The translations under genes were made by a program, and so were the position numbers. Under the pieces are notes generated by a model, which was not told where the DNA came from, made no database searches, and was given only the letters and a program-made list of their open reading frames with translations. A stretch of DNA of 53,257 bases from assembly GCA_021399345.1 (NCBI GenBank), contig JAAFKI010000144.1, forward strand, positions 1 through 53,257. The letters run 5' to 3'. The DNA is from Candidatus Heimdallarchaeota archaeon. GTDB lineage: Archaea; Asgardarchaeota; Heimdallarchaeia; Heimdallarchaeales; Heimdallarchaeaceae. Each line of letters starts with the position of its first letter. Position 1 is the first letter of the stretch. Shown one piece after another: positions 12,046 to 17,071 of this stretch.

Positions 12046-14649
12046 TTATTTTGTTTGTGGTTTTTCAATTTCTTTTGTATAGTTTTTAGCACTTTTCTGT
12101 AACTGTGTTTTATCTAGAACCTTTGCTAAGCGCTCAATTGCATTCAAGTTATGCACCAATGCATCTAACCATGAATACAAATCACCAGGATAGAGCTGAA
12201 TATTATAGTTCTTACGAAATTCACTAGAAATGCGGATAGGGGAATAACCTAGTTTCCTTAGTTCTACTAGTTTTTTCGAAAGGTTAACTTCTCCACAAAT
12301 ACAGAAAGGTCTATCTTCGCATTTACAGGTAAAGAATTCTTTGGTCCAAATTGCAAATGTGTCAATAATCAGTTTCGTAGGACTCTTTCTACCCCATCCA
12401 TGACCTGAATAAAGGTCAAGAATTGCTCCCGAGAATATGTTTGTTGATATATTTGTTTTTAGAGTTCTTTCTATATCCCCATGCACTCTTGGAACTAAAT
12501 GAGCAGATCTAAAAGGTTGTATTTTGATGGCCAAAGTTAAAGCAAAATCTTCCTCAAAGCTTTTGGGTTTTTTCCTTTCAATTTCTTGTACTAAACGGAG
12601 AGCATATGCAGGGGATAAAAATGATAAAGAAACAGCTTTTCCTAAATCTGTAGGAATGATTATCATATTTTCAACATCAATCATTTTCATCTTGCGTAAT
12701 GCTCTCATATTATCAGGAAGAGAACTCGATCTACCTATAATATTAGCAAAAATCATCTTATCATCTGAAATACTGACATTTTGGAAAGCAACTATTGTTG
12801 CTAAAATTTCTTCCTCTTCTTCAATAGTATCTAGAATAGGATCAACATCTTCTATTGGTTTGGTTAATAGATCAAAAGCTACTTGCTCTTCAGTTTCTTT
12901 TTGACCTGCAAATATTTTTCTCCCAGGCTCAATTAAAAGATAGACCTTTCCTTTGTCGTGGAAACCATATCTTCCAGCTCTTCCTAACATTTGATGAAAT
13001 TCTGCAACAGATAACCATTCAATACCCATTGCAAGGTTTTCGAAAATAACTGTGGATGCTGGAAAATCTACTCCTGCCCCTAAAGCTATTGTTGTTACAA
13101 CTGCGGAGTATCTTCCTTTTTCAAAACCTTTCTCAACAATTTTCCTTTGACGATAAGTTAAACCTGCATGATAAAAAGCAGCTGTTAAACCTTTTTTCTT
13201 AAGTTTTTTTGCAACATTCTCACAGTTTCTTCTTGAATTGGTAAAGACTAACGTTTGACCTTTATATCCTGTTTTTGACCTAATTTTTTGTTCATGTTGA
13301 CAGATTTTGAATAGGTGTTCAAATCGTTCATGTTCGTTTTCCGTTAGAACTGAATGTCTTTCCAAAGGTATAGGTCTACCCAAATACTCTACTACTTCGG
13401 CATTGAGATCTTCTCCTAAAACCTTTGGGTTTCCAATGGTTGCAGAGAGATAGATAAATTGAGCTTTGGGAAATAGAGCTTTTAATCGAGAAATTAAACC
13501 ATTTAATCTAAAACCTCTTTCTTTAGCAACAAGCATCTGTACTTCATCAATGACAATGACACCTATATCCCCAATTTCTTTGTTTTTACCATCTCTTAGA
13601 AGAAAATCAAATGCTTCATAGGTTGCAACAATGATATTTGCTGTCTTAAAAGTTTCATCAATTATAGGTTTATGTTCGCCTTCAACTTGAATTCTACTCA
13701 TTCCTACCCTTATAGTAGTTTTTAGTTCCAATGCTTTATACCGTTTTTTGAACTGTTCATATTTCTGATTAGTAAGAGCTACTAGAGGAGATAGATAAAT
13801 GAATTTTTTACCTTTCAAAGCTGAGTTTATGCCTGCTAACTCACCCACAAGAGTTTTACCTGCGGTAGTACCCGCTAATACAAGAAGATCTTTATTTCTT
13901 AGAAGTCCTTTTTCTAGAGCCAATTCTTGAATTGGAAGAAGTGTCTGAATTCCATCACTTATGAGCAATTTTTTGAATTGAGAAGATAATAGGTCAACTT
14001 GGTTTACCTTCATTTTGTCTTCAATTTTCTTGGCTGGGATAATATCAAAGAGTGTTGAATCTGGTCTGTTTATAGGATCTTGGTCTGCACCAAAGGAAAT
14101 ATTCTCTAGAACATCATCTAGGTTACCTTCTCTTTGAGCTTGTTGTTGGAAGAATTTTGTAAGTCCTCCTGTTACAACTAAATTGCTTCGTTGTAGTTCA
14201 CTTGTTAGTAGATTTTTGCTGCAGTAATCACAGATTCGGTTTCCTTTAAATTTGAGAGAATCGTTATCTAAAGCAGTCCATTTGATTCTTCTAGATAGAC
14301 AAAATGAACAAAGAGGAGCAAGTTTTGGTTTTGATATCTTGAAAGTACGACAATATTCTAGTAATCCTGCATTATCCCAGGGGAGATCTGTATCGGGAAT
14401 AAGGAGATATTGAGCATCTCTCAAATTTTCTGTAGCAAAACGGGGACGAATGTAAATATTGGAGCTTCGACCAACTTTAAGATACTTGTAAACCCTCAGA
14501 TGATTCCTTTCATACACAAATTGCAATCTAGTATGAGTTAAAGGTCGTCTTTCCTTACTTGAACCAAGACTAAAATAAATTATGTCTGTGGAACGTTTTT
14601 CTTTGTTCCAATTAAAGAGTATAGCAACATAAGGCTTAGGGAATTTCAT
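12046..14649 (-). CDS. Archaeal Ski2-like SF2 helicase (COG1202/ASH-Ski2 type)
   Basis: TTAGKTL, DEVQ, SAT, YHAGL, QMLGRAGR; C-terminal CKCEDRPFCICG and YPGD. Confidence 0.9.
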   Translation of the reverse strand: MKFPKPYVAILFNWNKEKRSTDIIYFSLGSSKERRPLTHTRLQFVYERNHLRVYKYLKVGRSSNIYIRPRFATENLRDAQYLLIPDTDLPWDNAGLLEYCRTFKISKPKLAPLCSFCLSRRIKWTALDNDSLKFKGNRICDYCSKNLLTSELQRSNLVVTGGLTKFFQQQAQREGNLDDVLENISFGADQDPINRPDSTLFDIIPAKKIEDKMKVNQVDLLSSQFKKLLISDGIQTLLPIQELALEKGLLRNKDLLVLAGTTAGKTLVGELAGINSALKGKKFIYLSPLVALTNQKYEQFKKRYKALELKTTIRVGMSRIQVEGEHKPIIDETFKTANIIVATYEAFDFLLRDGKNKEIGDIGVIVIDEVQMLVAKERGFRLNGLISRLKALFPKAQFIYLSATIGNPKVLGEDLNAEVVEYLGRPIPLERHSVLTENEHERFEHLFKICQHEQKIRSKTGYKGQTLVFTNSRRNCENVAKKLKKKGLTAAFYHAGLTYRQRKIVEKGFEKGRYSAVVTTIALGAGVDFPASTVIFENLAMGIEWLSVAEFHQMLGRAGRYGFHDKGKVYLLIEPGRKIFAGQKETEEQVAFDLLTKPIEDVDPILDTIEEEEEILATIVAFQNVSISDDKMIFANIIGRSSSLPDNMRALRKMKMIDVENMIIIPTDLGKAVSLSFLSPAYALRLVQEIERKKPKSFEEDFALTLAIKIQPFRSAHLVPRVHGDIERTLKTNISTNIFSGAILDLYSGHGWGRKSPTKLIIDTFAIWTKEFFTCKCEDRPFCICGEVNLSKKLVELRKLGYSPIRISSEFRKNYNIQLYPGDLYSWLDALVHNLNAIERLAKVLDKTQLQKSAKNYTKEIEKPQTK

Positions 14650-15219: not shown

Positions 15220-15355
15220 GAAAATCACTTTTCTAGTCAACTTTTTCTTAACATGGCCTCTTATAAAACTAGCTTTCAAGCTAAAGATATGGTTAAAGGA
15301 ATAATAACTCATAGAAAAGATTTTAATCAAGTGAACTGAACAATATTTGAGATTT

Positions 15356-15745
15356 ATGGCCAAGAAGAAACTGATAAAATGCAAAAATTGTGGAGAAGAG
15401 TGGATTCCGACTGATGTTCCAACAAAAAAGGAATGGAATATTGTCTCTCCAATGCCTGATAAACAAGGCAACGTCACTATTACTAGAATGGCGACCTGGG
15501 ACTGCCCAAAATGCGGTAAAAACCGTACTGGAGCTAAAGGAAAAACCAAGGGTGAGTTTAAAGAAGAGGAAACTCCTAAATATAAAATTGAGCATGCTAT
15601 TGTTTCTGGAGAAAAATTCAATATAGCTGACCTTGCTGAAGAAATAGGTTTTGACATCGAGAGCATTAAGAAAATAATACCAATGTATCTCAAGAAGAAA
15701 AGTATGAAAGGTAAAATTGATGGGGATTATTTCATTCCTGGATGA
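15356..15745 (+). CDS. Cren7-like zinc-ribbon domain fused to a C-terminal winged helix
   Basis: CKNC...KEWNIVSPMPDKQGNVTITRMATWDCPKCG resembles the long-loop Cren7-like family; FNIADLAEEIGFDIESIKK...GKIDGDYF is wHTH/PCI-like. Confidence 0.65.
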   Translation: MAKKKLIKCKNCGEEWIPTDVPTKKEWNIVSPMPDKQGNVTITRMATWDCPKCGKNRTGAKGKTKGEFKEEETPKYKIEHAIVSGEKFNIADLAEEIGFDIESIKKIIPMYLKKKSMKGKIDGDYFIPG

Positions 15746-15840: not shown

Positions 15841-16065
15841 ATGGCATATATAGCATATAACGGGCTCTTAACCGGTGGTTGGCTAACCTTTATGGTAGTA
15901 GTTTTTTCTATATTGACAGTTGCAAGCATTATTTGGTTTATATTGTATGTTGAAATGTCGCAGAGAAAGAATTGGAAAATGGTTGTTCTAATAGTTTTTA
16001 TTTGTGCATTAATAACAGCTTTTGAAATTCAGCTCATCCTTCTGAAAATAAATGTCATTTTCTGA
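15841..16065 (+). CDS. OST5/TMEM258-like oligosaccharyltransferase small subunit
   Basis: 74 aa with two TMs; WFILY and CALITAFEIQLILLKINVIF parallel TMEM258 WFFVY and [20 protein letters not shown] (from memory). Confidence 0.6.
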   Translation: MAYIAYNGLLTGGWLTFMVVVFSILTVASIIWFILYVEMSQRKNWKMVVLIVFICALITAFEIQLILLKINVIF

Positions 16066-16207: not shown

Positions 16208-17071
16208 GTGGTAGATGTGATGAAAGAAACCATATTCAAATATATCTCAACAGATGAAATAATTTCTGTCCTATCTACTACTAGTAAAACAGTAAAAAAG
16301 AAACCAAAAGATGATCTTCAGAAGCTTCTGTTCAAGGAACTCAAAGAGAAAAAAATATCCAGTACAAAGATTCGAAATTTCTGGTCTAAAGCATTGAAAA
16401 ATCAGTTTTTTGAAGAGTTTCAACGTGTTTATTTGTTTACCCCTGTCACAAAGTACGATACTTCGACTAAGCTAAAAAAAGAATTAACTAGCAAGTCCAA
16501 GAAATTAAAAGAAGAGAGTGATTTGAAGTTCAGTAATAGTTACATTTCCAAATTGAGTTCATCACCATTGCATTTTGTATATATGTTTGGGTTCAAAGAA
16601 CTTCAAGATCAAAATGATTTAATGAAGTTGCCTTTGGATTCGCTTATGTTTCTCTCAATTTTACCGGAGTTAGGTGTAGCTATTTGTCCTGCATGTGAGA
16701 AGACTAAAAAACATAAGTTCATTGTAAATCTTCTCAAAGCTACTTTTACTAATGTCACCGAACTCAAAGTTAATGCGCTTTTACTTAGAAAATATGCAAC
16801 ACAGGAGACAATAACTAAATTAAGTATAGCTACTCCTCAAGAGATAGCAGGATTTGCTGGACTTGATGTTATTGAGTTTAAAGGACCAAATGTGATGCTA
16901 GGTTTGTCTGGTTTGAAACGAAGACATGATGCAAATGTTGAGGTAATTACAAGAGTAGGTCCATTTAAAGAAATTGAATCTGGTTCAATAATGTTGAAGT
17001 GTGGGAAAGGTATTCATTTTAAAAAATATGCGGGACTTATATCACTCCTAAACACCCTTAAGATTGGCTAA
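16208..17071 (+). CDS. Hypothetical basic protein, candidate CENP-N/Chl4-like
   Basis: The 287-aa ORF is clear; the family call rests on a by-eye alignment only (see findings). Confidence 0.45.
   Translation: MVDVMKETIFKYISTDEIISVLSTTSKTVKKKPKDDLQKLLFKELKEKKISSTKIRNFWSKALKNQFFEEFQRVYLFTPVTKYDTSTKLKKELTSKSKKLKEESDLKFSNSYISKLSSSPLHFVYMFGFKELQDQNDLMKLPLDSLMFLSILPELGVAICPACEKTKKHKFIVNLLKATFTNVTELKVNALLLRKYATQETITKLSIATPQEIAGFAGLDVIEFKGPNVMLGLSGLKRRHDANVEVITRVGPFKEIESGSIMLKCGKGIHFKKYAGLISLLNTLKIG

Follow-up and report, generated by a model that had tools for sequence, protein, structure and literature searches.

The window, a 53,257-nt contig of a Candidatus Heimdallarchaeota archaeon (JAAFKI010000144.1, assembly GCA_021399345.1), encodes on its forward strand, at 16220..17071, a basic 283-amino-acid (aa) protein, P0002, which belongs to a conserved, unnamed protein family that, as far as sequence searches reach, is restricted to Asgard archaea. 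The predicted fold is that of RdgC, RexA and Iml3-Chl4 (CENP-L/N), preceded by a SAP-like head. The nearest solved structures are those of CENP-L and CENP-N, and the archaeal protein is predicted to pair with itself by the same extension of a beta-sheet. With moderate confidence, we take it most likely to be a DNA-binding protein of the chromosome that acts as a homodimer. The kinetochore counts as an invention of eukaryotes, and this single-copy family provides a clonable protein with which the descent of an inner-kinetochore part from an archaeal DNA-binding dimer can be tested. Even a conservative reading would make it a new family of core chromosome-associated proteins in Heimdallarchaeia, among them lineages where searches detected no histone gene, and would extend the RdgC/RexA/Iml3-Chl4 fold into Asgard archaea.

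The initial annotation of this stretch had described a basic open reading frame (ORF) of 287 aa without an enzyme motif and had proposed it as a homologue of the kinetochore protein CENP-N/Chl4. The ORF was confirmed at 16208..17071 (+), with 287 aa counted from a GTG codon. The N-termini of family homologues match the ATG at 16220, to which the GTG start adds four residues, and this ATG is the likely start; residues are numbered below according to this 283-aa form. The coding sequence is the sole match of the family profile in its genome (E 9.5e-134), with a single copy found even at E ≤ 10. The basic character was likewise borne out by an isoelectric point (pI) of 9.69, with net charges of +7, +7 and +6 on the three domains, and the median pI across the family is 9.2-9.6. 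Searches of Pfam and NCBIfam with the protein returned no match at E ≤ 10. Against PDB sequences, the protein matched only a de novo design, at chance level (E 0.59), and the family profile matched nothing. A Pfam scan of 32 diverse family members revealed no recurring family, and none of them matched PF05238.

Predicted fold and nearest solved relatives

The protein was modelled with AlphaFold2 from a purely archaeal alignment, which yielded a monomer with a predicted local distance difference test (pLDDT) score of 85.8 and a predicted template modelling (TM) score of 0.83. The model has three parts, all encoded on the forward strand: an N-terminal SAP-like domain of four or five helices (aa 1-66, 16220..16417), a globular, TBP-like alpha/beta domain (aa 67-183, 16418..16768), and a second alpha/beta domain for dimerisation (aa 184-283, 16769..17068), the most conserved part of the family. 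The globular domain is equivalent to the centre domain of RdgC, the globular domain of RexA and the N-terminal half of CENP-L/Iml3, and the aligned counterpart of the C-terminal domain is the C-terminal half of CENP-L, Iml3 and RdgC. A low-confidence loop (230-244) lies within the most conserved motif.

In a Foldseek search of the model against the PDB, human CENP-N (7pkn_N) came first (E 6e-6), followed by CENP-L, Iml3, Chl4 and Escherichia coli RdgC (8e-5). An unbiased structure search over 48,161 representatives gave the same ranking and added YejK at 7.9. In two structure searches ranked by Z, this one included, CENP-L/N, Chl4 and Iml3 stood about 2-3 Z units above RdgC and YejK. The CENP-L/N homology core fold is present in the model, as is the two-domain body with its C-terminal dimerisation domain; the initial annotation had named a predicted fold lacking this core as the outcome that would speak against it, and Foldseek recovered the core from the AlphaFold2 model. 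The superposition on CENP-L covers model residues 56-283 and CENP-L residues 60-341, and as modelled the body is more like CENP-L than CENP-N.

These searches also bear on the most general alternative, namely a generic TBP-like or alpha/beta-sandwich protein that would be unrelated to DNA-binding clamps and would act as a protein-protein scaffold, bind RNA or catalyse a reaction (for example, as an S-adenosylmethionine-decarboxylase-like enzyme). Matches spanning two domains (170-205 residues) were limited to CENP-L/N, Chl4, Iml3, RdgC and YejK and lay 1.3-4 Z above single-domain folds. Furthermore, residues 67-183 contain no conserved serine or catalytic-type residue, family-wide invariant residues occur only in the dimer motif, and the protein is uniformly basic. 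We regard a generic fold as very improbable.

The structural alignments with CENP-N and Chl4 begin at model residues 1-5 and therefore include the helical head, which occupies the place of the pyrin domain; in the superposition, model residues 4-68 lie on CENP-N residues 11-83. Taken alone, the head fits SAP better than pyrin, and a Foldseek search with the N-terminal domain alone gave no match at E ≤ 0.001. A pyrin-specific reading of the head was not upheld. In the model the domain looks SAP-like rather than clearly pyrin-like, which limits a kinetochore interpretation. The scores of the SAP domains of PIAS1, SIZ1 and FAN1 against the head are too low to demonstrate homology, and no sequence match accompanied them.

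A structure search of the ESM Atlas was headed by an unnamed, mostly Bacillota cluster of ~297 aa (TM 0.58/0.56, 241 residues over 4-280), followed by CENP-L (0.56/0.38), a phage cluster (0.54/0.47), CENP-N (0.48/0.48) and RdgC (0.46/0.40). The feature search of the same Atlas returned unnamed clusters only, at a recognition below the usual level, and again placed the Bacillota cluster first (0.95).

Two narrower accounts of descent draw on these rankings. According to one, the family would be the specific archaeal sister or ancestor of CENP-L/N, a surviving homodimer that was duplicated into the L/N heterodimer during eukaryogenesis and that is more closely related to CENP-L/N than to bacterial RdgC-like proteins of any kind. 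Apart from histones, no component of the constitutive centromere-associated network would have had a specific prokaryotic relative before this protein, which would already carry a CENP-N-like DNA-binding head. The lead of the kinetochore proteins over RdgC and YejK speaks for it, as does the position of the helical head in the CENP-N and Chl4 alignments. Nevertheless, the PDB ranking may reflect which relatives have solved structures, the Bacillota cluster fits at least as well as CENP-L or CENP-N over the whole protein, N-terminal domain included, the phage cluster also scores well beside CENP-N, and the head alone is not specifically pyrin-like; we consider this account unlikely. According to the other, which we put forward tentatively as a credible possibility, the family would be an Asgard branch of prokaryotic RdgC-like or RexA-like proteins, for example one that modulates recombination or the restart of replication, or a nucleoid protein, with a likeness to CENP-L/N at the superfamily level only. 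The best Atlas match by structure and by language-model features alike is a prokaryotic cluster, which favours this account, whereas RdgC itself ranks under all four kinetochore proteins and the RdgC Pfam model does not match the target. The present analyses do not separate a CENP-L/N forerunner from a general prokaryotic RdgC-like protein.

Predicted homodimer and known dimers of the same fold

The protein is predicted to form a homodimer. Folding of two copies gave a score of 0.56, compared with 0.22 for the best control. The mark applied to this score was reached by 20 of 30 one-chain-pair structures and by 1 of 23 single-chain structures, a calibration that is rough only, a custom alignment having been used. 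Agreement of contacts between the dimer runs was at least 98%, and the partner had a pLDDT of at least 87. The predicted interface, which spans aa 205-246 (16832..16957, forward strand), was delimited by two-copy folding and conservation and covers the family-wide motif. It is symmetric in the model, consists of residues 205, 210-225, 227-232, 234-239, 242-243 and 246, and takes in the loop that is low in pLDDT in the monomer. The contacts 219:219, 220:218 and 216:222 place strand 217-221 antiparallel to its own copy.

Assignment of secondary structure to the model with DSSP revealed no two-helix insertion of the tip/finger type in the globular domain, and the predicted contacts were confined to 205-246, with no second interface. 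With neither a tip/finger nor a second contact, an open dimer like Iml3-Chl4 is expected rather than the ring of RdgC (PF04381), a bacterial recombination-associated DNA-binding protein. The open dimer with its single interface, as predicted, argues for the archaeal sister or ancestor of CENP-L/N, and the lack of a tip and of a ring-closing contact in the predictions argues against an Asgard branch of RdgC-like proteins.

The homodimers of RexA and RdgC and the Iml3-Chl4 heterodimer are described as being held together by an antiparallel sheet that extends across both chains, and as presenting a basic face to DNA (PMC11077077). The features by which this superfamily is defined, a globular domain and a dimerisation domain that joins two chains through an antiparallel sheet (PMC11077077), were all found in the predictions. 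Individual members differ from the archaeal protein in other respects. RexA of phage lambda is a phage exclusion protein, whereas the archaeal protein is encoded by a single-copy core gene that belongs to neither mobile nor defence systems. E. coli YejK has a different C-terminal domain and clamp, and neither YejK nor RexA possesses a SAP-like head.

In the arrangement that we propose for the DNA-binding homodimer, two copies would join through their C-terminal domains, with strand 217-221 running antiparallel over a two-fold axis and extending the beta-sheet. The result would be an open, horseshoe-like dimer instead of a closed RdgC-type ring. Its basic surfaces and the N-terminal domains would contact DNA with no strong preference for particular sequences, and the protein would serve as a core single-copy chromosome-associated factor, possibly together with an adjacent zinc-ribbon/winged-helix protein described below.

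Sequence comparison, distribution and descent

The proposal of a CENP-N homologue had been built on four blocks aligned by eye that were said to be collinear with human CENP-N over the full length. In a Smith-Waterman comparison with primate CENP-N, the protein scored 37, where shuffled sequences averaged 36.0 (z 0.18) and 200 of 500 of them did at least as well, and the global z was -0.26. The similarity is at chance level, and we reject the blocks as evidence. Block 4 (VIEFKGPNVMLGLSGL versus LIKFSSPHLLEALKSL) was the only one with a clear best ungapped placement, scoring 28 against 11 for the runner-up, and it was also the top local match in an hhalign comparison with CENP-N, without being significant there; block 1 was marginal, and blocks 2 and 3 scored higher elsewhere on CENP-N. 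The register of blocks 1-3 is approximately that of the structural superposition of the N-terminal domain. The human C-terminal segment from which the annotation had worked is genuine, its 78-aa fragment being identical to residues 262-339 of 7pkn_N. Profile searches returned no significant match to the CENP-N or CENP-L models, and hhalign of the family profile against a mammalian CENP-N alignment was likewise not significant (probability 0.1%, E 0.46).

A comparison with 21 diverse vertebrate CENP-L sequences behaved differently. It gave one collinear hhalign alignment of 210 columns (62-281 versus 66-336; P 0.057, probability 1%), whose register equals that of the structural superposition at both ends and in which the archaeal YLFTPVTKY is paired with YSLTPLYKF of CENP-L. 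The score was reached by 3 of 100 block-shuffled and 1 of 100 column-shuffled profiles, none of the 200 exceeded 87 columns, and the reversed profile aligned over 12 columns. CENP-N and CENP-L, accepted paralogues that were compared with each other as a control, failed as well (P 0.019, 17 columns), in agreement with the lack of significant similarity noted for them by Tromer et al. (PMC6601020). Within this superfamily, sequence methods thus have little power, and we take the CENP-L signal as weak support rather than proof, both for the shared fold and, through its collinearity, for descent in common with CENP-L/N.

Several differences separate the archaeal protein from both kinetochore proteins. 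Against CENP-L/Iml3 (PF13092) it has no significant sequence score and bears an extra N-terminal helical domain; CENP-L/Iml3 pairs with a paralogue in eukaryotes, whereas the archaeal protein is a predicted homodimer of organisms without a kinetochore. It is shorter than CENP-N/Chl4 (PF05238), with 283 aa versus 339-458 aa, and CENP-N/Chl4 recognises the CENP-A nucleosome, whereas the archaeal lineage has neither CENP-A nor a detectable histone. No histone fold (PF00808/PF00125) was found in the genome of the window (completeness 88.6%) or in G015 and G016, two closed genomes of the same taxonomic family, and closed genomes of three other Asgard lineages that bear the target contained 1-10 histone matches. 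If the absence is real, the Heimdallarchaeaceae lineage of the window lacks canonical archaeal histones, and the target would not read nucleosomes in this lineage. No L/N-type paralogue was detected, with one match per genome in nearly all genomes. Both the missing paralogue pair and the missing histones count against a specific ancestor of CENP-L/N, and the sequences are too divergent for a tree. On its side, the position is vacant, since Tromer et al. found no significant sequence similarity or relative for CenpL/N (Tromer et al. 2019, PMC6601020). This main reconstruction of kinetochore origin places CENP-L/N only in the broad TBP-like fold class (PMC6601020). In a full-text literature search of incomplete coverage, no CENP-L/N-like protein from Asgard or other archaea came to light. 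As for the pre-eukaryotic, chromatin-binding ancestor of CENP-N/L that the initial annotation had envisaged, the idea was supported only in part: its fold and its dimer, both as predictions, were borne out by the present work; its match to CENP-N in profile and sequence, its L/N pair and its histone substrate were not.

The family comprises ~70 clusters of ~283 aa. All carry the annotation 'hypothetical protein', and those with a named source belong to Heimdallarchaeota metagenome-assembled genomes (MAGs). When 1.8 billion representatives were searched exhaustively with phmmer, 38 members were recovered, with identities down to 23%. Neither this search nor the Pfam scan of 32 members revealed a sequence link to RdgC-like or Bacillota proteins. 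A locus search with a narrow alignment retrieved Heimdallarchaeota records only, and in distant genomes the narrow profile matched only the C-terminal part (aa 184-283). A wide profile matched once in each of 107 genomes out of 400 Asgard genomes. The family is near-universal in Heimdallarchaeia, the class of the window (76 of 82 genomes), which fits a specific relationship to CENP-L/N, and it also occurs in several other Asgard families (5/5, 6/6, 3/3, 4/4 and 4/5 genomes). Its confinement to Asgard archaea runs counter to an origin among prokaryotic RdgC-like proteins, the lone 'bacterial' match being probably mis-binned. This match lies in a 'Candidatus Deferrimicrobium sp.' bin (L062/L063; k141_535214, DATKTP010000217.1), where the family member adjoins genes for an Arf/Roc-type small GTPase and a PDCD5-like dsDNA-binding protein; the contig is probably Asgard DNA mis-binned into a bacterial MAG. 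On the basis of these Asgard-type neighbours, a bacterial origin of the match (P0104) was rejected. In G026, another genome of the window's genus, a further, incomplete copy (residues 1-146) was seen where a contig ends (C87:267-1115; C37:3-440), which is either an assembly duplicate or strain heterogeneity.

Conservation peaks in the C-terminal 100 residues, where the family-wide motif EIAGF.GLD.I.F.G..V..GL.GL..R.D ... GP is located. G211, G214, G222, G228, R235 and G247 are invariant across the family, and position 237 (D237) is always acidic.

Several observations weigh against a homodimeric DNA-binding protein of the RdgC/RexA/Iml3-Chl4 fold. The structural scores are moderate (Z ≤ 11, TM ≤ 0.58), and the result of two-copy folding may stem from a likeness to solved dimers of the same fold. 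DNA binding we infer from the relatives in fold and from charge. The curated hidden Markov models of CENP-N (PF05238), CENP-L (PF13092) and RdgC (PF04381) matched neither the target nor any other protein of its genome (PF05238 searched genome-wide at E ≤ 10). The hhalign score against CENP-L is not significant on its own, and the long collinear alignment could result from a shared order of secondary structures rather than from descent. Finally, the wide profile found the family in 0 of 135 genomes of f20, the largest Asgard family, in 0 of 19 of f12 and in 0 of 14 of f19, and the family is thus not universal among Asgard archaea.

Genomic neighbourhood

Within the window's taxonomic family, the gene order is fixed at every locus with enough flanking sequence: a helicase and a double zinc ribbon on the opposite strand, a 132-aa zinc-ribbon/winged-helix protein, a 74-aa microprotein, the target, and a pyruvate:ferredoxin oxidoreductase operon. 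The 132-aa protein (15347..15745, forward strand) combines a zinc ribbon (CxxC...CxxC) with a winged-helix-like part, has no Pfam match, and its profile found no meaningful match among PDB sequences. It is encoded in 97 of 400 Asgard genomes. Its gene adjoins that of the target in families f1-f4 and in G285 of f24, and it is the sole gene that stays adjacent outside the window's family. In two lineages where the target is 24-29% identical, this neighbour is 45-50% identical and lies 14-22 nt upstream. Such conservation suggests a functional partnership with the target.

This arrangement recalls the RdgC-like proteins that Schwab et al. (2024, PMC11390915) described from Halobacteria and Bacillus and which, compared by description, likewise have an RdgC-type body with small terminal domains and occur in operons with a winged-helix-bearing protein; the likeness favours an Asgard branch of RdgC-like proteins. 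The operons of those proteins contain a histone and a large membrane protein, whereas the archaeal locus has the zinc-ribbon/winged-helix protein and the microprotein. The ~297-aa Bacillota cluster of the Atlas is similar in length to the target and its best full-length structural and feature match, and may correspond to the family of Schwab et al.

In some members of the family the C-terminus extends 55-95 residues further; examples are P0077, with 377 aa, and the open frames in G041, G043, G046 and G048, with 338-351 aa. The extension of P0077 has a weak Pfam match to a PCI-type winged helix (E 1.4e-4); as a relative of the neighbour's winged helix it was not accepted, the hhalign similarity being weak only (probability 3.5%). 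The winged-helix half of the neighbour is homologous to the C-terminal extension of another member, the 339-aa P0081 (hhalign 88.9%, E 2.4e-6).

The hydrophobic membrane microprotein (15841..16065, forward strand) lies between the zinc-ribbon/winged-helix gene and the target and is kept in the window's family only. With tblastn it was detected at 54 of 63 loci, approximately 380 nt upstream on the same strand, with 42-97% identity. It was absent from L034 and L035, and L030 gave only a weak match that was displaced and on the opposite strand.

The helicase (12046..14649, reverse strand) is an 867-aa protein with DEAD, Helicase_C and C-terminal DUF5814 domains according to Pfam. The same architecture was found near the homologue in the distant lineage of L031, in L032 and L033, and at all 24 family loci with enough flanking sequence, and a DEAD-box helicase as a conserved neighbour counts in favour of a DNA-binding dimer as well as of an Asgard branch of RdgC-like proteins.
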